DNA of 64,000 nt, from the sequence record NC_020079.1; one strand, written 5' to 3'. Each line of letters begins with the position of its first letter. Position 1 is the first letter of the stretch. The translations under genes were made by a program, and so were the position numbers. The notes below the pieces were generated by a model, which worked only from the letters and a program-made list of their open reading frames with translations, was not told where the DNA came from and did not search any database. Shown here piece after piece: positions 5,521 to 61,355 of the stretch. This DNA is from Escherichia phage phAPEC8.

Positions 5521-7020
5521 GCCCGAACAATGTTGATAGCTTTCGCCTATGAAAAACCGACACAGAACAAAATTGAATAAATCGCGGTATCGAGCTAATC
5601 AACCATTAAACGAATAACCATACCTCCCAGGGTAACAGGCTGTTAGAGAGCCATTTAAAGCGGTTAAAATCGATCAACAACCAACAACAAACCATCAAAA
5701 ACACCCTTTTACCTCCTTTCTAGTGCAATGATAACCATTATCATCTATCCATGTTTATCTATGCAATATAAGTGCATAACTATAATGTTGATAATAGTTC
5801 GCAACAACTAACTAACCAACAACCTAAAACAATAAGCAAACTAATCATAATCAAAGGAATAATAGCAAGATGATTGATAACGACAAACAATCAAACCATG
5901 ATGAATACTAAGCAAGATAACGATAACACGACAAAACAACCAACTAACGAACAATAACAAACGAAACCATTAAAATAACAACTATTAGCAAAATAGTGCC
6001 TGAATGAAATCATTACAAAACGAATCATTCACAGGATCATCATTAGCACGCTATGCCGGACACATAGCGAGCTAATAATAAGCCAACTACACCCCAACAA
6101 TCATAACCATCGGTGATGGTTATTTCTTGTTACTGCGTAGCTTGCAATAATTGCAAGCGTAATTACGCTTACACTTATTGCGCTGGCTTATTATTAGCAT
6201 TATATGTAATTACCAAGATCATAACATTAGCGCAATAACAATAATCATTGTGGTAATTACAAGATGAGATCATTAGCAAGATGAATAATTGCACGTAGCA
6301 ACATGAGCGAATAGCGACAGGTTGCATAGTGTGCACATAGTGTATAAACATACAAGAAAATAAAGGCTAATCTTTTGGGGGCGAATACTATCGCGTAGCG
6401 ATATGTTGAGCACCTTCTCTTAAACGTAAATAAAATCAGAATAATCTTGATTTATTTTAGTTTTTATGTTAATAAACGTTTAAATAATAATCATTCTCAT
6501 ATAAATAATAGTCCGTTTGTCATGAGCGGGATTAGTTGACAGTGTTCCGTCATATGATGAAGTTGCCAACCCCTTGATAAATAAGCCTTTGTGTGATTTA
6601 TAATCAAGTGGCCCACCTTGTCGCTACGTTGGCATGAAGCTTGCATAAGTCATTGAATACGAATGATAATTATTCTCATTCGCATGATATTTGGGAATTG
6701 TCGCTGCGTGGACCTGACGGCCCGAAAATTCGCGTTAAGCACTTCTTACGTATACGCCATGATTTTTGCCATATGATATTGATTCTATTAGATATTCTTG
6801 CCATGATTGCCATGAAACAGGGTGTCCCGAAATAATCTCTCCCCGTAGATATTTTGGGTTACTTTTTATACAAGAGTGGGGTGTCAAAAATAATCGGTAT
6901 ATATGGGATAATTGATAGGAATCCCCTATGATAATTCGATTGTAATTCCCTAAGATTGATCGTATGATGTTGGTGATTGATGATTGCCATGAAAGATGGC
7001 TAACGATGAGAGGAGATTAT
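5521..7020. other. ORF-poor, A+C-skewed, palindrome-rich non-coding region
   Basis: no credible ORF; CAACAA-type low complexity; palindromes GCGTAATTACGC, TTGCAATAATTGCAA; repeated CATTAGCA and TTGCCATGA motifs. Confidence 0.6.
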
Positions 7021-7021
7021 C

Positions 7022-16556: not shown

Positions 16557-16626
16557 ATAATAAATACCTTGACAAGTGTTTATTCGTTTTGTAAAGTGAG
16601 AATACAGCAATGGTTTAGGAGTGGTT

Positions 16627-17298
16627 ATGAAAAAGTTTGTTGTTTACAGTCGTCTTTCTAAACAGAAAAAAGGTGAGGCACAATATGGTATGGAGAGCCA
16701 AGAGAATGATATCCGTTACTTCTTAGACTCTGTGCCTGATGCGGAAGTTATTGGTCAATTTTCTGAATACTATTCGGGTAAGGGCGATTGGAAGCAACGT
16801 AAGGAACTGGTTAAAGCGGTTGAAATGTGTAAAGCTACCGGAGCAACTTTATTGGTAGCTAAAGTTGACCGCTTGGGTCGTAACAACGCCTCCGTAGCAA
16901 CTCTTCTAGAGATGATCGATGTTAAGATAGCCATCATGCCAGACGCAGATAAAATGGTTATACAGCTTCTGTCTGTTCTGGCTGAACAAGAAGTTAGAGG
17001 TATTGCTGATCGTATTAAAAAGGGTCTTGCTGTAGCAAAAAGCAAAGGTGTTTTATTAGGCAGTGCTAATCCTAAAACTGCCGCTGCACGTAGAAAAGGG
17101 AAAATGGAATACAACTCTGTTAAAGCAGACGCTTTTGCAGAGACATTCCGTGAACGCTTGGAGATCCTTAGAGATTTAAATACACCTTACAAAACTATTG
17201 CTGAAAAATTCAATAGTAAGAAAATAGCAACAGCACGTGGTGGTAAATGGGATGCTAAAACTGTTTCTCGTTTGTGTGCCAGACTGAACATTAAATAG
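16627..17298 (+). CDS. small serine recombinase (resolvase/invertase family)
   Basis: YSRLS (Ser nucleophile context), LLVAKVDRLGRN, E-helix LSVLAEQEVRGIADR; own TTGACA promoter at 16571. Confidence 0.7.
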   Translation: MKKFVVYSRLSKQKKGEAQYGMESQENDIRYFLDSVPDAEVIGQFSEYYSGKGDWKQRKELVKAVEMCKATGATLLVAKVDRLGRNNASVATLLEMIDVKIAIMPDADKMVIQLLSVLAEQEVRGIADRIKKGLAVAKSKGVLLGSANPKTAAARRKGKMEYNSVKADAFAETFRERLEILRDLNTPYKTIAEKFNSKKIATARGGKWDAKTVSRLCARLNIK

Positions 17299-18960: not shown

Positions 18961-19011
18961 TAGTTGCACCCCGTTCTGCGGGGTGTTATTGTATATGTAA
19001 AGGAGGCGCTA

Positions 19012-19350
19012 ATGTATTACACTGAAGACTACATATTGTATAACTTTTTTAAAGGTTGGTTGAAATGGGCGGAACAAGCTCCTGTCGGAGATTGTGTTTT
19101 TCCTTGGGATTCTCGTCAAGGCTTGTGTCGTTGTTTGGAAGATTGGCTTATAACCACAAACTACAATTCAGAAACTAAGAAATCTACATCAAACAGATTA
19201 AAAATGTTGTTTGAAGAAGATGGTTTAGATCCAATTTATCCTTTCGGTGAGGAAAGTTTCCACAATGGTCTTTTCCTTGGCACTCAACATTATGATAAAG
19301 ATCGTGTAGATTGGGTAAAAGAAAAGGTAGCACAGTATGAATGGGGTTAA
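19012..19350 (+). CDS. paralog family A member 7
   Basis: FFKGWLKW, QGLCRCL, DGLDPIYPFG, RVDWVKEKV; ATG after AAAGGAGG. Confidence 0.55.
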   Translation: MYYTEDYILYNFFKGWLKWAEQAPVGDCVFPWDSRQGLCRCLEDWLITTNYNSETKKSTSNRLKMLFEEDGLDPIYPFGEESFHNGLFLGTQHYDKDRVDWVKEKVAQYEWG

Positions 19351-19540
19351 GAATTATCACCGCTGGTTAGAAAGCTATCTTAAGAAATGTGAACTTGGTG
19401 TTCCAGGTTATACTTACGACACGGACGAGATTCTTGATGAAATGGAAGTTTGGTTTAAAGAGCCTCGTGAACTATTGGAAAACATTCTAATGGCTTGGGA
19501 TGGTACGGCACAAAGCATTGAAGGAGATAGAAATGAGTAA
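19337..19540 (+). CDS. hypothetical small protein
   Basis: ORF but no clear SD. Confidence 0.35.
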   Translation: MNGVKNYHRWLESYLKKCELGVPGYTYDTDEILDEMEVWFKEPRELLENILMAWDGTAQSIEGDRNE

Positions 19541-19667
19541 GAAATTGTTTAATATTCGTGAGAACCGTGATGGATCGTTCTCTGTAGTCAATGAGTTTAA
19601 CGTTTCGGTTGGGACTTTTATTACTAAACGTCAAGCAGAACAAGTAAGAGATACTTTAAACAAGTAA
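19533..19667 (+). CDS. small protein (44 aa)
   Basis: ATG ORF below cutoff, SD GAAGGAGA. Confidence 0.35.
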   Translation: MSKKLFNIRENRDGSFSVVNEFNVSVGTFITKRQAEQVRDTLNK

Positions 19668-19685
19668 ATTTTTAAGGGGGGACTT

Positions 19686-20105
19686 ATGTTAGGTAAGATC
19701 AAAGCTTTTTTCAAACGTATTGTTGAAGGAAGTCCAACAGAAGGTGCATTAGGAAGATCTCTAACAGGAGAACCGCTTGCCATAATTTCTATCAGTCGGT
19801 ATGGTGGATATTCAATTAAACAAACACCTTTAGGTATAGAAGGTAGTATGCTTTCTTGGACAATATCTCAAGTTGGTGATAACAGGCTTGCAGCTATAGC
19901 ATTGCTTCGTGGGGAGTATGACTATTGTTTATCAGCGCCTTGTAAAAAGCATCTCATAGAGCACATTAGAGACAGAGTAGAAAGAGAAGGCGGATACTTC
20001 TTCGAAACTAAGAGAAACGAACAAGGAACTCTTGACTTCACTAAGGTTTACTGGGACAATCATACTCGTCAAACTGTTGAACAACTTCTGGAGGAAAGAT
20101 GTTAA
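19686..20105 (+). CDS. hypothetical protein
   Basis: ORF, SD AAGGGGGGA. Confidence 0.55.
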   Translation: MLGKIKAFFKRIVEGSPTEGALGRSLTGEPLAIISISRYGGYSIKQTPLGIEGSMLSWTISQVGDNRLAAIALLRGEYDYCLSAPCKKHLIEHIRDRVEREGGYFFETKRNEQGTLDFTKVYWDNHTRQTVEQLLEERC

Positions 20106-20308
20106 AAGCTTTTGCTGTATACTCTACTGTAGGATTCTTTTATTGGATTATAGTTATTGTCGGGTGTTGGTTAGGTTCTTGTGTTGTGATGGGAGAATGG
20201 TTAACATACAATGTATTTGAATGGGATGTAGTTTGTAGATCATTACTTGTTATATGGACTGCTATTGTTTGTTGGATAACTGTTAGTCTAACATTGGATC
20301 TATACTGA
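20099..20308 (+). CDS. small membrane protein
   Basis: two hydrophobic helices; SD GGAGGAAAG. Confidence 0.5.
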   Translation: MLKAFAVYSTVGFFYWIIVIVGCWLGSCVVMGEWLTYNVFEWDVVCRSLLVIWTAIVCWITVSLTLDLY

Positions 20309-20309
20309 T

Positions 20310-20668
20310 TAATAGATGGTAGATAGATGATCATAGTTTATCTACCTTCACTTACGTTTCATACCTCACTATCGTGAGTAACATGAAACATTATTATATA
20401 GAAATCTACTACTCGCTATCGCTCGTAAACATATGTTTAGGGTACCATATTTTTTTGAAAAAGTCAATGCTGATTCACCTATCAATTATCTGTTTAAGAT
20501 AAGTCTTACCTATCAATCTAACTCTTAACTAGTATTGCACCTATAGTCAGACTATTCCTATAGTTATTAACCCTCTTCTTCTATAGAATGTAATTAGATC
20601 CTTGACAAACTCACAAAGCTTGTGTTACATTGTGTCTCACAAGTGAATAATACCGAACAGGAGGAAGA
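20310..20668. promoter_or_regulatory. intergenic regulatory region with nested hairpins, CCTAT(C/A)(A/G) direct repeats and TTGACA promoter (20602)
   Basis: GGTAGATA..TATCTACC and GTTTCAT..ATGAAAC inverted repeats; five CTATCA/CTATAG motifs. Confidence 0.45.
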
Positions 20669-20884
20669 ATGAGTTCCAATTTTCTATACAAAGCAAAAGA
20701 TTCACGAGATGGAGAGAACCATTGGTGGTTGATCACAGGAGATGGTGTTATCATCCTACCGTGGGACGGAGAGACAAAAGTTCAAATACTGGAGAAAGTA
20801 AAAGGTGTTAGTTTTAATGTTAGTCATGACATAACAACTTTCAAAGCTTTTGCTATGAATCCTAGTCTTGTTGCTGAATGGTAA
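20669..20884 (+). CDS. hypothetical protein
   Basis: ORF, SD CAGGAGGAAG. Confidence 0.55.
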   Translation: MSSNFLYKAKDSRDGENHWWLITGDGVIILPWDGETKVQILEKVKGVSFNVSHDITTFKAFAMNPSLVAEW

Positions 20885-20897
20885 TCCAGGAGAAAAT

Positions 20898-21116
20898 ATG
20901 ACTAAAATGTATGCAGCCGTTGATAAGCTGGATGGGTCTGATTCTGTTTTTATTTTGAATAAAATGGGTGTCTTAGTTTATGCCCGAACTTCTCAAAACA
21001 TAGAACACCAAGTGGAAGCAGCACAAATTTTAGAGCAAATAACCCCTCCATACCTATACTCAAATGTTGAGCGTTTTAACGATGCACTTGGTTTGACGTT
21101 AATAGCGGAATGGTAA
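20898..21116 (+). CDS. hypothetical protein
   Basis: ATG after CCAGGAGAAA; track start is TTG 20868. Confidence 0.5.
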   Translation: MTKMYAAVDKLDGSDSVFILNKMGVLVYARTSQNIEHQVEAAQILEQITPPYLYSNVERFNDALGLTLIAEW

Positions 21117-21118
21117 TA

Positions 21119-21316
21119 ATGGCGAAAATGTTGGAAATTGATAATGTCGTAACAATCACTACGTCCACACCTTGTTCTCCTATGCCTTGCCCCTATTGTG
21201 GTGGTGCAGGATATGTTATGGCGGATGTAGGTCAAATTTACGAGTGTAACCCGTGCAAAACCACAGGTTATATCCAAATAGAATCAGAGGAGAAACACTA
21301 TGAGCCAAAACACTAA
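21119..21316 (+). CDS. small zinc-binding protein
   Basis: CPYCGG ... CNPCKTTG pairs. Confidence 0.45.
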   Translation: MAKMLEIDNVVTITTSTPCSPMPCPYCGGAGYVMADVGQIYECNPCKTTGYIQIESEEKHYEPKH

Positions 21317-21749
21317 AGAAAAAGAAGTAATCACGGTAATCCGTCAGATGGAAGGTGCCGAAAACAATGCTTTTGTTACTAAAATTCTTCTTAATATCTT
21401 TGAAGATGTTATTTTAAACAATCCTGGTCATAAAGATTATCAGTATGATGTTATGATGGGGGCTTTGCTTGAGATTAACAAAAACACTTTTGCTGAATAT
21501 GAGCAACACATGCTTTTACCAGAGGAAGATCAGGATTATTTGTTATCTGGTGCTTTAAGTGCACAAGAAAATTTCTACCACGTTCTTAATATGGCTTATG
21601 CAGATGAACTTGCTGTCTCCCTTGAAGAGCGGATTCAAATGGTTCGTGACGTAATGAATGAACAAATCCAAGAAGTTGAAGATCTGGTAGCAGAGCCTTT
21701 AGCAGAAATTCGTGCAGCTATTGAAAAACAAAAAGGAACTCAATCATGA
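21300..21749 (+). CDS. hypothetical protein
   Basis: ORF, SD GAGGAGAAA. Confidence 0.55.
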   Translation: MSQNTKEKEVITVIRQMEGAENNAFVTKILLNIFEDVILNNPGHKDYQYDVMMGALLEINKNTFAEYEQHMLLPEEDQDYLLSGALSAQENFYHVLNMAYADELAVSLEERIQMVRDVMNEQIQEVEDLVAEPLAEIRAAIEKQKGTQS

Positions 21750-21913
21750 TGCAAGTAGGTGATGTGGTTTGTCTTAAAGGTGCAAACAAACAAATGACAG
21801 TAATAGAAAGTTATGGTGAATCTTGTAAAGTAACTTGGTTTGATGAAAACGGTGAGTTGCAACACGCTATATTCGATCAAAAAGCTTTGAGGAAGGTTGA
21901 AGAAAAAGAATGA
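21746..21913 (+). CDS. small protein (55 aa)
   Basis: ATG ORF below cutoff, ATGA overlap both sides. Confidence 0.4.
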   Translation: MMQVGDVVCLKGANKQMTVIESYGESCKVTWFDENGELQHAIFDQKALRKVEEKE

Positions 21914-22173
21914 GCCATCCATCAATATTTTTCTGTTTTGTAGATCTTGAAAACGAGTCTTTAATCGTTGATAGTGAGGGTTACTTCACTTATTGGGAAT
22001 CCGAGCACGAAACTATAAGTGTAGTGAAAGAAATTATGCAAACCAATCCAAATCTACCAGCGCATAAGTACGGTATTGCAAAAGTGTTTGTTACTAAAAC
22101 AGAGTACACAAAAGAGCGAAGCACTTTGTACCATAATATTGAAGTGATTCACTATTTCAAAGATGTTATTTAG
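21910..22173 (+). CDS. hypothetical protein
   Basis: ORF tiling. Confidence 0.5.
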   Translation: MSHPSIFFCFVDLENESLIVDSEGYFTYWESEHETISVVKEIMQTNPNLPAHKYGIAKVFVTKTEYTKERSTLYHNIEVIHYFKDVI

Positions 22174-28131: not shown

Positions 28132-28221
28132 AATATTTCTCCTCTATTGGTTGATAGGTTAAGTTTATCAAGCTTCCAGATTCCTGTCAATAAAAAACCC
28201 GCCGAAGCGGGTTATTATTTA

Positions 28222-51112: not shown

Positions 51113-51184
51113 AACGCCTCCTAAAAAGCCTACCTCATTAAGTAGGTAGGCATAATATCATAACTAATCCCGCAAGTCAAGAAC

Positions 51185-57693: not shown

Positions 57694-57699
57694 TCTAGC

Positions 57700-58164
57700 C
57701 TCCTAAACGCGTCTCTGACGCACTTTTTATATATAAGATGATAAATCACCTTACCTAGTAAGTAAGCTTGCTCTACGAGCCTCTTATGAAGCTTAAGTTA
57801 TACTATTGCTACCTGTTTAAGCAAGGTTTTGCACACAGAAAATAATTTTTAATAAAACTCTTGACTTTTGTGTTCGAAGTATGCTACCCTAGAAATCTAT
57901 TAACGAGCGCAGCGAGTTAAGGTTTTAGGTTGTTGATGTAGTACTCTGTACTAAAGCACTGTACTCCGTACTAGATTAATAATTATTAAATATTAATAAA
58001 TAATTATTAGATCTAACAAACAGGTACAGTGTATCAGAACTGGTACGTACATATCAACTTCTATCAATTAAAAAATAAAATAATAAATTATTATAAATAA
58101 TACTTGATCTATAAATCAGTATGAAGTACAGTACGTAACATCTTAACAAGAATGGAGGTGTGCA
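57700..58164. promoter_or_regulatory. divergent intergenic control region with GTAC-containing repeats and AT-rich palindromes
   Basis: TGTACT/AGTACAG half-sites about 8 times; TAATAATTATTAAATATTAATAAATAATTATTA; minus-strand TTGCTT/TATAAC promoter. Confidence 0.5.
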
Positions 58165-58350
58165 ATGATTAGTGAGAATCCGTGCAAATGGCATCATGTG
58201 CCTATTAAAGATTGTATGTCTTGTAATCCACGTTCTATTTATAACATTGCATCTTATGATGATGACAATGTGTTAGACGATGATGAAGGCTGGGAGGATT
58301 TAGATTGGACTGGTTATGAAACCAAAAAGGATAAAATTATTCCTAGTTGA
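58165..58350 (+). CDS. hypothetical small acidic protein
   Basis: ORF, SD GGAGGTG. Confidence 0.5.
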   Translation: MISENPCKWHHVPIKDCMSCNPRSIYNIASYDDDNVLDDDEGWEDLDWTGYETKKDKIIPS

Positions 58351-58387
58351 CTTAAGATATCCTTCGTGCTAAACTAGAAGTGAGGAG

Positions 58388-59142: not shown

Positions 59143-59214
59143 GGCCCTGTAGCTCAATGGGAGAGCTGTCGGCTCATAACCGATAGGTAGCTGGATCGAA
59201 ACCAGCCAGGGCCA
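59143..59214 (+). tRNA. tRNA-Met (anticodon CAT)
   Basis: manual cloverleaf: acceptor GGCCCTG/CAGGGCC, loop CTCATAA, T-loop GATCGAA, CCA encoded. Confidence 0.75.
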
Positions 59215-59219
59215 CCAAC

Positions 59220-59291
59220 GTCTTTATGGTGTAATGGATAGCACAGGAGTCTTCTAAACTCTTAGTCAAGGTTCGATTCCTTGTAAAGACA
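59220..59291 (+). tRNA. tRNA-Arg (anticodon TCT)
   Basis: acceptor GTCTTTA/TAAAGAC, loop CTTCTAA, T-loop TTCGATT. Confidence 0.7.
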
Positions 59292-59528
59292 CCAGAACAT
59301 TTTAACATGAATTAGCTCAAGTGATTTGAACCCACTACTGATCATGGTGGCAGAGAATGAGGCAAGTATGTCAGACATTATAAACAAAGGCCACGGTTAC
59401 ATTAGAAGACATAAATGCTCGAAGAGCACCGTTCGTGGAGAACGGGGGTTGGTGGAGTCACCATTCATGGTAAAATGTTTTAAAAAACTATTGACAACTA
59501 ACATTATTTTATGTTAGATTATAAGTAT

Positions 59529-59616
59529 GGAAGGGCAAATCGACGTGGCGACGAAAACGGTCTTGAAAACCGCCGAGCTTGAAAGAGCCTTGGGAGTTCG
59601 ACTCTCCCTCCTTCCG
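59529..59616 (+). tRNA. tRNA-Ser (anticodon TGA), type II
   Basis: long variable arm; loop CTTGAAA; T arm GGGAG-TTCGACT-CTCCC. Confidence 0.7.
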
Positions 59617-59623
59617 CCAGATT

Positions 59624-59706
59624 GGTAGATTGGTGAAATGGTAGCCACGACAGTTTGCTAAACTGTAGTCGGAAACGGCGTGTAGGTTCGAGTCCTACAT
59701 CTACCG
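59624..59706 (+). tRNA. tRNA-Ser (anticodon GCT), type II
   Basis: acceptor GGTAGAT/ATCTACC; stem ACAGT/ACTGT loop TTGCTAA; long variable arm. Confidence 0.7.
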
Positions 59707-59836
59707 CCAAGTTGTTTTTAATGTAGCGTTGCGGCTACTTACTTTAGCAGAGTAAATCTTCGGCAAGTGGCGGTAACCACTTTACCGATACCGCATAGTC
59801 AGTAAGGCGAATACTGGCTACTTTAAAAACAATTTT

Positions 59837-59917
59837 GTGAGATTGGCAGAGTGGTCGATTGCGGGGGACTGTAAATCCCTTCTGAAAGGCGCGGTGGTTC
59901 GAATCCATCATCTCACA
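59837..59917 (+). tRNA. tRNA-Tyr (anticodon GTA), type II
   Basis: acceptor GTGAGAT/ATCTCAC; loop CTGTAAA; long variable arm. Confidence 0.7.
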
Positions 59918-59926
59918 CCAAATTAA

Positions 59927-60009
59927 GATGAGTTGGCTGAATGGTTTAAGCGGCGGACTGTTAATCCGTGTTCGAAAGAACGATATAGGTTCAAATCCTA
60001 TACTCATCG
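59927..60009 (+). tRNA. tRNA-Asn-like (anticodon GTT) with 15-nt variable arm
   Basis: anticodon arm GCGGA-CTGTTAA-TCCGT matches E. coli tRNA-Asn; extra GTTC-GAAA-GAAC hairpin in variable region. Confidence 0.55.
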
Positions 60010-60019
60010 CCAGAATTAT

Positions 60020-60096
60020 GGACTTGTAGAGTTAAGGTAAACCCCCAGTCGCCAAGAGGCTTCTGGAATTGCAGGTATCGAATCCTGCCGAGTCCC
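60020..60096 (+). tRNA. tRNA-like element, non-canonical, anticodon unresolved
   Basis: 7-bp acceptor GGACTTG/CGAGTCC and T-arm-like GCAGG..CCTGC, but no canonical anticodon arm and 8-nt T-loop. Confidence 0.3.
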
Positions 60097-60102
60097 AGCT
60101 TT

Positions 60103-60174
60103 GCTCCTATAGTATAATGGCTATTACAACGGTTTTGTAATCCGTGGATCTCTGTTCGATTCAGAGTGGGAGCA
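60103..60174 (+). tRNA. tRNA-Thr (anticodon TGT)
   Basis: acceptor GCTCCTA/TGGGAGC; loop TTTGTAA; T arm CTCTG-TTCGATT-CAGAG. Confidence 0.65.
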
Positions 60175-60452
60175 CCAACACAACATTAAGGGCACTGTGA
60201 TTGATCGTCGTATCCTGTGCACAAGGTCTGTTCGAAAGACAGTGTTCTTAGTATTGTGTTGATCACACAAAAAGAGTTACCTGAAACTTGACCGGAGTAG
60301 GGTTGGATGGGGCAAAAGAAGAAGCGGCTCTCCCATCGACAGCAACGAAGAATAATATTTGACTTTGGTTTTGTATTATTTTAAGTTAGCTTACCGAACG
60401 TAGGGCTAGTCACCCAACGGGATACTCGTCACTGTCCCACTCAATAAAACTA

Positions 60453-60483
60453 TTGACAACCAATAGTAAAATGTAGTATAGTA
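60453..60483 (+). promoter_or_regulatory. promoter (AACTATTGACAA ... TAGTAT) upstream of tRNA-Gly
   Basis: -35 TTGACA, 16 bp spacer, -10-like hexamer. Confidence 0.5.
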
Positions 60484-60493
60484 AAGATGTAGG

Positions 60494-60564
60494 GCGTTCT
60501 TGGTGTAGCGGTAGCATTCCGTCCTTCCAAGTCGGCGGCACGAGTTCGATCCTCGTAGAACGCT
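60494..60564 (+). tRNA. tRNA-Gly (anticodon TCC)
   Basis: acceptor GCGTTCT/AGAACGC; D-loop AGCGGTAG; loop CTTCCAA; T arm ACGAG-TTCGATC-CTCGT. Confidence 0.7.
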
Positions 60565-60666
60565 CCAAATTATTTAATAAAGGGTTGCCAGAAAACTTTC
60601 TCTTTTACTCATGGTTTTCTCCTTCTCTCACACCTCTTCTGGTTGCCCTTCATTAAATGATTTATT

Positions 60667-60739
60667 GGTTTGTAGTGTAGTCCGGTAGCACACGACACTT
60701 TGACTGTCGTAGGTTTGGTTCAAATCCAGACAGACCAGC
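60667..60739 (+). tRNA. tRNA-Gln (anticodon TTG)
   Basis: acceptor TGGTTTG/CAGACCA; stem CGACA/TGTCG loop CTTTGAC. Confidence 0.7.
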
Positions 60740-60834
60740 CATATAACAAAGGTGAGTCACTACCTCAAGTGTGAAGTTAAAAACGAGGAGCCGCCGAACA
60801 CTTTCTTTTGCGGCGTACCTTTAGAATGTTATGA

Positions 60835-60908
60835 CGGAATTTAGCTCAGTTTGGTAGAGTGTACGCTTTGGGAGCGTATTGTCGCAGGTTCGAATCCTGC
60901 AATTCCGA
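60835..60908 (+). tRNA. tRNA-Pro (anticodon TGG)
   Basis: acceptor CGGAATT/AATTCCG; D arm TAGCTCAGTTTGGTAGAG; loop TTTGGGA; T arm GCAGG-TTCGAAT-CCTGC. Confidence 0.8.
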
Positions 60909-60917
60909 CCAATTAAA

Positions 60918-60988
60918 TGTTTCGTAGTTCAATGGTAGAACCCACGACTGATAATCGTGAGATACAAGTTCGATTCTTGTCGAAACAA
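60918..60988 (+). tRNA. tRNA-Ile (anticodon GAT)
   Basis: acceptor TGTTTCG/CGAAACA; stem CACGA/TCGTG loop CTGATAA. Confidence 0.75.
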
Positions 60989-60993
60989 CCAGT

Positions 60994-61062
60994 TTCCCGT
61001 TAGACTTACAGGATAAGAGTTCCACAATTTATTGTGACGCTGGTTCGAATCCAGCACGGGAT
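60994..61062 (+). tRNA. degenerate tRNA-like element (possible tRNA pseudogene)
   Basis: 6-bp acceptor TCCCGT/ACGGGA and canonical T arm GCTGG-TTCGAAT-CCAGC, but anticodon region is a palindrome with no 7-nt loop. Confidence 0.3.
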
Positions 61063-61069
61063 ACATAAT

Positions 61070-61145
61070 AGCGGGATAGAGGAGTCTGGTCGTCCTCGCC
61101 AGTTTCATATGCTGGAGATCATTGGTTCAAATCCAATTCCCGCCT
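61070..61145 (+). tRNA. tRNA with CAT anticodon (Met, initiator or Ile-lysidine)
   Basis: D arm GAGG..CCTC; stem CCAGT/GCTGG loop TTCATAT; A1-C72 mismatch. Confidence 0.6.
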
Positions 61146-61355
61146 CCAAATATCGCTTGCCAGCGGTATCTTTGAAGACCTTGCCTGGTTCCTTCTAAGA
61201 TGGAGGGGTGCGACTCCTTAACGCACAATTATAATAAAGCATTTCAAATTAACAGTATTTATTAGCCTCCTTATTGGAGGCTTTTTGCTATCTATTGAAT
61301 AAAACTTGACTTATTATTTTTTATATGTTAAGATAAAGTTTAGGAGGATTTTATT

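Follow-up and report, generated by a model that had tools for sequence, protein, structure and literature searches.

The DNA analysed here, referred to as the window, is a stretch of 64,000 nucleotides from Escherichia phage phAPEC8 (NC_020079.1). Small rightward genes occupy 6.6-23.7 kb and leftward genes 23.8-57.7 kb, and a tRNA cluster comes next. Among the rightward genes, a non-coding gap of 360 bp is flanked by ORF 20099-20308 and ORF 20669-20884. An earlier note had described in this gap a hairpin (H1), a second, nested hairpin (H2), copies of CCTATCA and CCTATAG and a TTGACA promoter, and all of these were found at the places it had given. In a DNA search, positions 19000-22000 of the window matched 61 phage genomes over at least 80% of their length. 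The records that matched this segment at 95-99% identity numbered 63, and all were phAPEC8-like Escherichia phages (Phapecoctavirus, Stephanstirmvirinae). Rfam 15 at gathering thresholds returned 11 tRNAs and otherwise no match in the whole window. GC skew and cumulative skew mirrored only the gene orientation across the window. In the early region of the phage, which is virulent, a 225-aa ORF at 16621-17298 (+) carried a serine-recombinase N-terminal domain (Resolvase, PF00239; E = 5e-18).

Alignment of close relatives showed that the part of the gap under constraint within Phapecoctavirus is 20318-20517, which was nearly invariant. Sensitive DNA searches found 83% identity to the phiWec188 type for 20318-20524, 79% identity to about 56 Justusliebigvirus genomes for 20375-20471 and 85% identity to Citrobacter phage Tr1 for 20409-20468. 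With Tr1 as the query, Klebsiella phage FKP3, the Pseudomonas-isolated phage PsgM04F and a second EmilieFrey site were added. Conservation beyond the genus was confined to 20375-20471. The flanking genes across the cross-genus loci were mostly non-homologous or shared only 37-47% protein identity, and because they are mostly unrelated between loci, the conserved stretch is kept in its own right. The strongest feature of the gap had been missed by the earlier note: a minus-strand promoter followed by a hairpin box (20408-20467). This cassette alone within the gap is conserved across genera.

The promoter of this cassette (promoter A) has the sigma-70-type layout TTGACT-N17-TGGTACCCT on the minus strand (20467..20439), with a conserved -35 element TTGACT at 20467..20462, a 17-nt spacer and an extended -10 element TGG-TACCCT at 20447..20439. 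It matched TTGACT-N14-TGnTAnnnT exactly, with a profile E-value of 1e-17. Sites of the class TTGAC(T/A)-N14-TGnTAnnnT were about five times over-represented in the window (13 found versus 2.65 expected), and they are probably the phage's main host-polymerase promoter class. The other sites of the class point with the local genes (e.g. 51152-51180 (-), 58347-58375 (+) and 61306-61334 (+)), whereas promoter A points the opposite way. From sigma-70 geometry, the leftward start is predicted at about 20432 (+/-2).

Zero substitutions were found genus-wide in the hexamers of promoter A or in the box. The blocks conserved on the minus strand were TTGAC(T/A), a spacer of 17-18 nt, TG(C)TACCCTA, 8-15 variable nt and the box CGAGCG-N1-2-AGCGAG; the spacer sequences differed between paralogs and the length of 17-18 nt was kept. 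Most of the 20 module sequences had TTGAC(T/A) at -35, the exceptions being Tr1 (TTGATT), the A copies of EmilieFrey and FKP3 (both TTTTAC) and the viral contig L279, which had no -35. The -10 element TG(G/C)TACCCT was present in all members, with T-12, A-11 and T-7 kept. TACCCT agrees with TATAAT at three of six positions, the key ones at -12, -11 and -7, a count that weighs against the promoter reading. Two further leads were considered and not retained, a sigma-S-like reading of GCTACCCTAA and a likeness of AGCGATAGCGAG to the RfaH ops element; the latter fails in 13-nt variants of the box.

The box begins about 12 nt beyond the -10 element of promoter A, and within the window the box and the TGnTACCCTA -10 element always occurred together, never apart. 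CGAGCG-N1-2-AGCGAG was invariant in 18 distinct family members. In the gap the box CGAGCGATAGCGAG lies at 20425..20412 within a hairpin at 20409..20428 (-), UUA-CGAGC-GAUA-GCGAG-UAG, which would occupy about +5 to +24 of the predicted transcript. The stem comprises 3-7 flanking pairs (three in promoter A's copy), a C-G pair, tandem G.A/A.G, a G-C and a C-G pair and then the loop; the loops across members were GAA, GCA, GAUA, GGGA, GAAA and GUAA, that of copy A being a GNNA loop. Among the 18 distinct members, 83% of cells were paired compared with 26-45% with a slid partner, and covariation was 0.368 compared with at most 0.12, the slid-partner control being inflated because the hairpin was derived from the same sequences; none of 500 shuffles reached the observed score. 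The three flanking pairs alternate between AU, UA, CG and UG, and chromosomal copies of the cassette added later still fit the structure. The 15 G.U cells favor the promoter-sense strand, since the opposite strand would have A.C mismatches in their place.

This strand asymmetry bears on whether the functional product is instead made from the plus strand, either as a 39-aa protein (20383-20502, a homolog of phAPEC8_0059) or as a structured RNA or a terminator whose end would be the T-run 20450-20456. Several records, among them ASO2A and phAPEC8 (gp0059), annotate the ORF, a run of seven T follows the palindrome at the predicted start, the terminator scan reported a hairpin and T-run on the anti-promoter strand of a second cassette copy (copy B, below), and the plus strand folds well (z = -3.5). 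However, the 39-aa frame is broken by stop codons in phiWec188, Tr1, EmilieFrey and FKP3, and the mini-ORF is therefore probably an annotation artefact. Besides the A.C mismatches, the box stem on the plus strand would hold C.U/U.C in place of G.A/A.G, the T-run in copy A lies about 10 nt from any hairpin, the RNA would be antisense to genes at copy B, and Rfam 15 gave no match for 20200-20750 at E <= 10. We regard a plus-strand product as highly improbable. A 64-aa ORF on the minus strand (20140-20334) was likewise discarded, as its frame is shifted by an 8-nt indel in phiWec188 and a conserved plus-strand ORF for a membrane protein overlaps it.

H1 (20318..20346, +) begins 10 nt past the stop codon of ORF 20099-20308. 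It is an inverted repeat with an 8-bp stem, formed by GGTAGATA (20318-20325) and TATCTACC (20339-20346), and a loop of 13 nt; it was nearly invariant in 7 close relatives and was retained in phiWec188. In the 99%-identical phage ASO2A, the equivalent site carries an annotation as a rho-independent terminator (TransTermHP, WebGeSTer). In our terminator scan H1 was flagged on neither strand because its 13-nt loop exceeds the limit of 8 and its T-tract is weak; three of the eight stem pairs are G-C, and the tail reads TTCACTT. H1 is likely the hairpin at which the upstream rightward operon stops or has its 3' end. H2 (20356..20389, -) falls within the stretch that promoter A is predicted to transcribe leftward. 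It is a nested hairpin with an outer stem, GTTTCAT (20356-20362) with ATGAAAC (20383-20389), and an inner stem, CTCAC (20365-20369) with GTGAG (20374-20378), closed by a GATA loop. In phiWec188 the outer stem is ATTGC/GCAAT, where two positions are altered on both sides in a compensatory manner, and in other genera a different hairpin occupies the position of H2. The stretch of 134 nt that holds H1 and H2 folded better than shuffled sequences on both strands (z = -2.4 and -3.5), the value of -3.5 being that of the plus strand. On the minus strand no good U-tract follows H1 or H2, so a discrete small RNA from promoter A is not assured.

At the downstream end of the gap, the rightward promoter (20602..20631, +) consists of TTGACA, an 18-nt spacer, TG and TACATT, with 10 of 12 matches in the promoter scan, and a ribosome-binding site AGGAGG at 20659-20664 (+) precedes ORF 20669-20884. 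Both hexamers were invariant in 7 close relatives. By inspection, the promoter-like site that precedes the downstream gene of phiWec188, TTGTAA-17-TATACT, is a different one and not homologous.

Between the two promoters, CCTATCA occurs at 20478 and 20509, CCTATAG at 20540 and 20557 and a looser fifth copy, TCTATAG, at 20580. The earlier note had counted these as five repeats of one motif, CCTATMR, and had suggested an iteron-like regulator site. Over the whole window CCTATMR was not enriched (17 found versus 23 expected). The local clustering is non-random, as four same-strand copies within 100 bp were seen in none of 300 Markov simulations, in which the maximum was 2. The five repeats are nevertheless of two kinds. 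One kind is a pair of direct ACCTATCAAT repeats that lie 31 bp apart, at 20477-20486 and 20508-20517; both were invariant in 7 close relatives and in phiWec188/PsgM04F, with variable flanking bases. Their centres fall at about -50 and -81 relative to the promoter A start, three helical turns from each other. The CCTATAGT and TCTATAGAA copies, on the other hand, vary within the genus. They lie in the most variable stretch of the gap within the genus (20519-20600), a poorly conserved spacer that holds both copies of the direct repeat CCTATAGT (20540-20547 and 20557-20564), TCTATAGAA and an inverted repeat, the palindrome TTCTATAGAA (20579-20588). Positions 20542, 20558, 20562, 20581 and 20583 were variable among close relatives; in phiWec188 the segment 20540-20588 could not be aligned, and the CCTATAGT and TCTATAGAA copies were missing. 

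A related motif, (T/C)(G/A)ATAGG, the reverse complement of CCTATCA, stands 10 nt upstream of the -35 element in four of five type-A lineages (window type, phiWec, Tr1 and FKP3). The A copy of EmilieFrey has CAATCGG at that site, with a CTATCAAT motif nearby in the opposite orientation. In the other genera the CCTATCA-type motif was single or inverted, and (T/C)(G/A)ATAGG was absent from the B and C copies of the cassette, which carry A/T-rich, UP-like tracts upstream instead. Three further ideas were tried and discarded: CTATCAAT as an IHF site fitted the consensus poorly by inspection, a plus-strand promoter before each ACCTATCAAT copy showed no convincing -35 by inspection, and CTATC clustering as a link between box, H2 and repeats was marginal (reached in 7 of 200 simulations). 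Elsewhere in the window, the gap 6836-7021 contains an imperfect CCTATCA-type palindrome, ATTGATAGGAATCCCCTATGATAAT, at around 6900-6940 near a promoter (-), and ACCTATCAAC lies at the predicted start of a terminator-promoter unit, TTGACA-N-TGATAAACT, at 28190..28162 (-).

We consider it improbable that the main functional element is an iteron-like or operator array formed by the CCTAT(C/A)(A/G) repeats, with the hairpins marking only a transcript boundary. Such an array would agree with the clustering, with the invariance of the two ACCTATCAAT copies across genomes of 83% identity, with the presence of a related motif in either orientation at all type-A loci, and with similar motifs near other promoters (the palindrome at about 6905-6935 and ACCTATCAAC at 28190). 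Yet conservation is limited to two of the five copies, the CCTATAG copies change within the genus and are lost in phiWec188, the number and orientation of the motif vary from genus to genus, it is missing from cassette copies B and C, the wider CTATC clustering is marginal, the IHF consensus is fitted poorly, and the strongest cross-genus conservation lies beside the repeats and not within them. An iteron region would be expected to hold at least three regular conserved repeats, an initiator gene and an A/T-rich unwinding element, a combination that the gap lacks. No replication-initiator gene was identified near the gap, where Pfam gave no family for four flanking ORFs. The iteron-like site of the earlier note thus reduces to two conserved 10-bp copies that form no array. 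The ACCTATCAAT pair is better described as upstream elements of the leftward promoter and as candidate regulator binding sites.

The other suggestion of the earlier note, a transcription boundary, proved reasonable in view of the terminator annotation of H1 in ASO2A and the conserved rightward promoter before the next gene. We hold, with rather more confidence than doubt, that the gap is a back-to-back promoter junction, a compound transcription junction whose conserved core is a portable promoter-plus-hairpin cassette. At such a junction, H1 would end the incoming rightward operon, and host RNA polymerase with a sigma-70-family factor would start leftward at about 20432. The leftward transcript would carry the box hairpin at its extreme 5' end, continue through H2 and then meet H1. 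Because the minus strand has no good U-tract, its product could be either a non-coding RNA of about 90-125 nt or, if unstopped, a longer antisense RNA against the rightward early genes. A DNA-binding protein at the ACCTATCAAT pair (about -50/-81) might tune promoter A, and the TTGACA promoter at 20602 would restart rightward transcription of ORF 20669-20884 and the genes that follow. Between genera the body of the putative leftward RNA was not conserved, and this speaks against a base-pairing sRNA built on a conserved scaffold.

A profile search (nhmmer) found three paralogous copies of the cassette per phage genome, copies A, B and C, and the same set was present in Justusliebigvirus, phiWec-type and FKP3-like genomes. 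Copy A is the one in the gap; in all the genera it points against the genes on either side, with no ORF downstream. Copy B is outside the window (136.83-136.89 kb in ASO2A) and is co-directional with a downstream leftward block that includes replication genes (DNA polymerase, primase/helicase); B copies in general lie just upstream of genes and in the same direction. Copy C was found at about 57860-57920 (+; nhmmer E = 5e-7), with TTGACT at 57861-57866, TGC-TACCCT at 57882-57890 and an exact box match, CGAGCGCAGCGAG, at 57904-57916 with TTAA/TTAA flanks. It is conserved in Phapecoctavirus and phiWec188. It lies in the gap 57694-58164 and faces the ORFs from 58165 and the tRNA cluster 59143-61148; because this gap is divergent, the gene context of copy C fits either strand. 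The same gap holds repeated GTACT motifs and long A/T-only tandem repeats (about 57975-58010 and 58070-58100), the first of which is annotated as 'repeat_region' in phage anhysbys, and the nieznany record starts inside the gap and matches it twice. A DNA unwinding region, an end of the genome or a break point of the assembly are possible explanations for this gap.

Database matches of other kinds were also obtained. Type-B cassettes were matched in the 'Proteobacteria bacterium' MAG contig JAEZZU010000022.1 (L290) and in a contig of a Lysobacteraceae isolate, JAPMLR010000069.1 (L297). Both agree with the Phapecoctavirus type-B region over about 140 nt, with a single-base deletion in one of them, and they look like phage sequence inside bacterial assemblies. 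An 84-kb viral contig without a close relative among phage records (L279, IMGVR_UViG_3300037840_000216) contains TGTGCTACCCTAA and a box at about 5851-5881 (-). The box is part of a perfect GAAA hairpin extended by 7 bp, TCCTATC...GATAGGA, and there is no recognisable -35; the element could be a remote member of the family, or the match could be due to chance. In the environmental IMG/VR viral contigs L043, L045 and L125-L144, TACCCTA-TCCCCCCCAA-CGAGCGAAGCGAG occurs within long inverted repeats together with tandem CGAGCG(A/G)AGC units. These contigs were picked up through the construction of the search pattern and have no -35; their element is probably unrelated and perhaps a terminal repeat.

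The segment between the -10 element and the box is 8-15 nt long and variable in sequence, and many members, though not all, form small GAA-loop inverted repeats there. In copy A this AT-rich segment (20426..20439) is an inverted repeat in the form of a perfect palindrome, TAAACATATGTTTA. Inverted repeats that overlap the start would not be contained wholly in the RNA, and together with the GNA/GNNA loops they hint at a role for single-stranded DNA. Such loops are typical of stable DNA mini-hairpins, as reportedly described by Hirao et al. We also weighed a transcription-primed replication origin of the kind found at T4 ori(uvsY)/ori(34) or in T7. The promoter would make a primer RNA or R-loop, GNA/GNNA mini-hairpins on the displaced non-template DNA would load the phage helicase-primase, and islands (below) would copy the cassette to be replicated during infection; at a dedicated origin, the orientation of copy A relative to the genes would be irrelevant. 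Copy A, with no downstream gene and set against transcription in every genus, would suit this role, as would the several copies per genome and the small inverted repeats that span the predicted start and can be folded there only by DNA. A/T-rich stretches follow several cassettes (tandem AT repeats after copy C, and stretches after the A copies of FKP3 and EmilieFrey), the islands with cassettes encode a primase-type protein, and the cores GCGAAGC and GCGAAAGC equal classic stable DNA mini-hairpins. Copy A in the window, however, is followed by AT-rich sequence for only about 20 nt, the GC skew shows no shift at 20.4 kb beyond the gene orientation that it follows, and neither an iteron array nor an initiator gene was found beside the cassette or in the island leaders. 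B copies, and probably C, occupy the sites expected of ordinary operon promoters, and G.U pairs suit RNA no less than DNA. We judge an origin to be unlikely.

The box hairpin is better seen as the signature of a promoter class within the transcription junction, where it would most likely dock or stabilise something on the nascent RNA or on the displaced non-template strand. If it is such an element, the three phage transcripts and an island operon would respond to the same phage- or host-encoded factor. As to function, we infer either a regulatory leader or a replication primer.

When bacterial genomes were scanned, complete cassettes turned up in an uncultured MAG and on contigs from the chromosomes of Citrobacter sp. 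OP27, Scandinavium and Buttiauxella. The carriers are small integrative elements, here called islands, and the cassette stands at the head of their main operon. About 28 chance matches were expected by estimate in the scan of bacterial contigs, and only those with profile support were retained; the first scans of broad collections had been dominated by chance 15-16-mer matches, which were filtered out. The island copies are at 4709-4790 in L278, 4089-4131 in L292, 5331-5393 in L291, 5109-5152 in L303, 2940-3002 in L308 and 7340-7396 in L293. Their identity to phage copies was 60-77% over about 72 nt, and they carry a second covarying hairpin with a GAA/GAAA loop. The islands have a common order of tyrosine integrase, cassette, a leader of 700-900 nt, small ORFs and a DUF5906/primase-type protein. 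The cassette of L278 adjoins a P4-type integrase that is 92% identical to that of P4, and endonuclease VII was detected in both islands with scanned proteins (L278 and L292). No tRNA gene was found next to the islands within the loci examined, the island leaders contained no iteron array and no initiator gene, and neither the phage nor the island version of the cassette was present in 5,426 complete E. coli genomes.

An unregulated strong promoter would be abnormal for the replication genes of an integrated element, so the adoption of the cassette by islands suggests that it responds to a factor present during infection. The islands may be satellites of Stephanstirmvirinae phages. Only tentatively, and with more doubt than belief, we put forward a fuller scenario in which the TGCTACCCTA promoter and the CGAGCG-loop-AGCGAG hairpin form an undescribed Stephanstirmvirinae control or priming signal that is read by a dedicated factor. 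Islands of Citrobacter, Buttiauxella, Scandinavium and Klebsiella-type hosts would have copied the signal to sense or exploit infection, and hence would be satellites of virulent phi92/phAPEC8-like phages; copy A would yield a decoy or primer RNA and not an mRNA. In the literature searched, no description of the cassette was found, and for promoters, transcriptomes and satellites of Stephanstirmvirinae only genome descriptions were found.

Several known systems resemble parts of this arrangement. Lambda oop, like P22 sar, is a short non-coding RNA that has a promoter of its own and runs against a unidirectional phage operon. It shares with copy A a sigma-70-type promoter that opposes co-directional genes, the lack of a downstream ORF, hairpins within about 100 nt and a position just past the 3' end of the upstream gene. 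Unlike copy A, however, it overlaps its target gene cII and has a good terminator, whereas copy A has a poor U-tract and an upstream gene that lacks conservation between genera; what is conserved here is the promoter plus the first ~25 nt, common to two mRNA-type copies, and the leftward RNA is a predicted one. The lambda nut (boxA, boxB) and HK022 put sites are leader RNA elements downstream of a few promoters that modify RNA polymerase. As with the cassette, there are few copies per genome, placed directly after a promoter that heads a long, terminator-rich unit, and a small covarying hairpin with a GNRA-like loop is present. In contrast to these sites, the cassette has no boxA-like sequence by inspection, no N-, Q- or put-type function was identified, its hairpin lies at about +5 to +24 and theirs further downstream, and copy A has no operon to antiterminate.

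At T4 ori(uvsY)/ori(34) and the T7 primary origin, transcripts from promoters prime replication. These origins share with the cassette a promoter followed by A/T-rich DNA, several occurrences per genome and the double use of some as gene promoters; the T4 origins differ in having MotA-dependent middle promoters and no common downstream box, and the GC skew is uninformative here. The late promoters of P4 mimic those of P2, a case of a satellite copying control sequences of its helper phage. Similarly, the islands are integrase- and primase-type elements that carry a cis element homologous to one of a phage family, but their presumed helpers are virulent, and the common element is a promoter core with a start-site hairpin and not an upstream activator site. 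Full membership of the cassette was established for none of the oop, nut/put, T4/T7 origin and P4/P2 classes.

At the level of annotation, the ORF carried in many records as a homolog of phAPEC8_0059 is probably not a gene. Phapecoctavirus and Justusliebigvirus phages have been widely isolated for therapy against E. coli and Klebsiella, and a cis-element that is present in three copies and across genera offers a handle on the organisation of transcription or the start of replication in these 150-kb phages. The cassette provides a specific sequence for reporter, pull-down and origin-mapping work. The cassettes in islands point to a possible helper-satellite relationship that involves virulent phages; if confirmed, this link would bear on the outcomes of phage therapy and on how satellites recognise their helpers.
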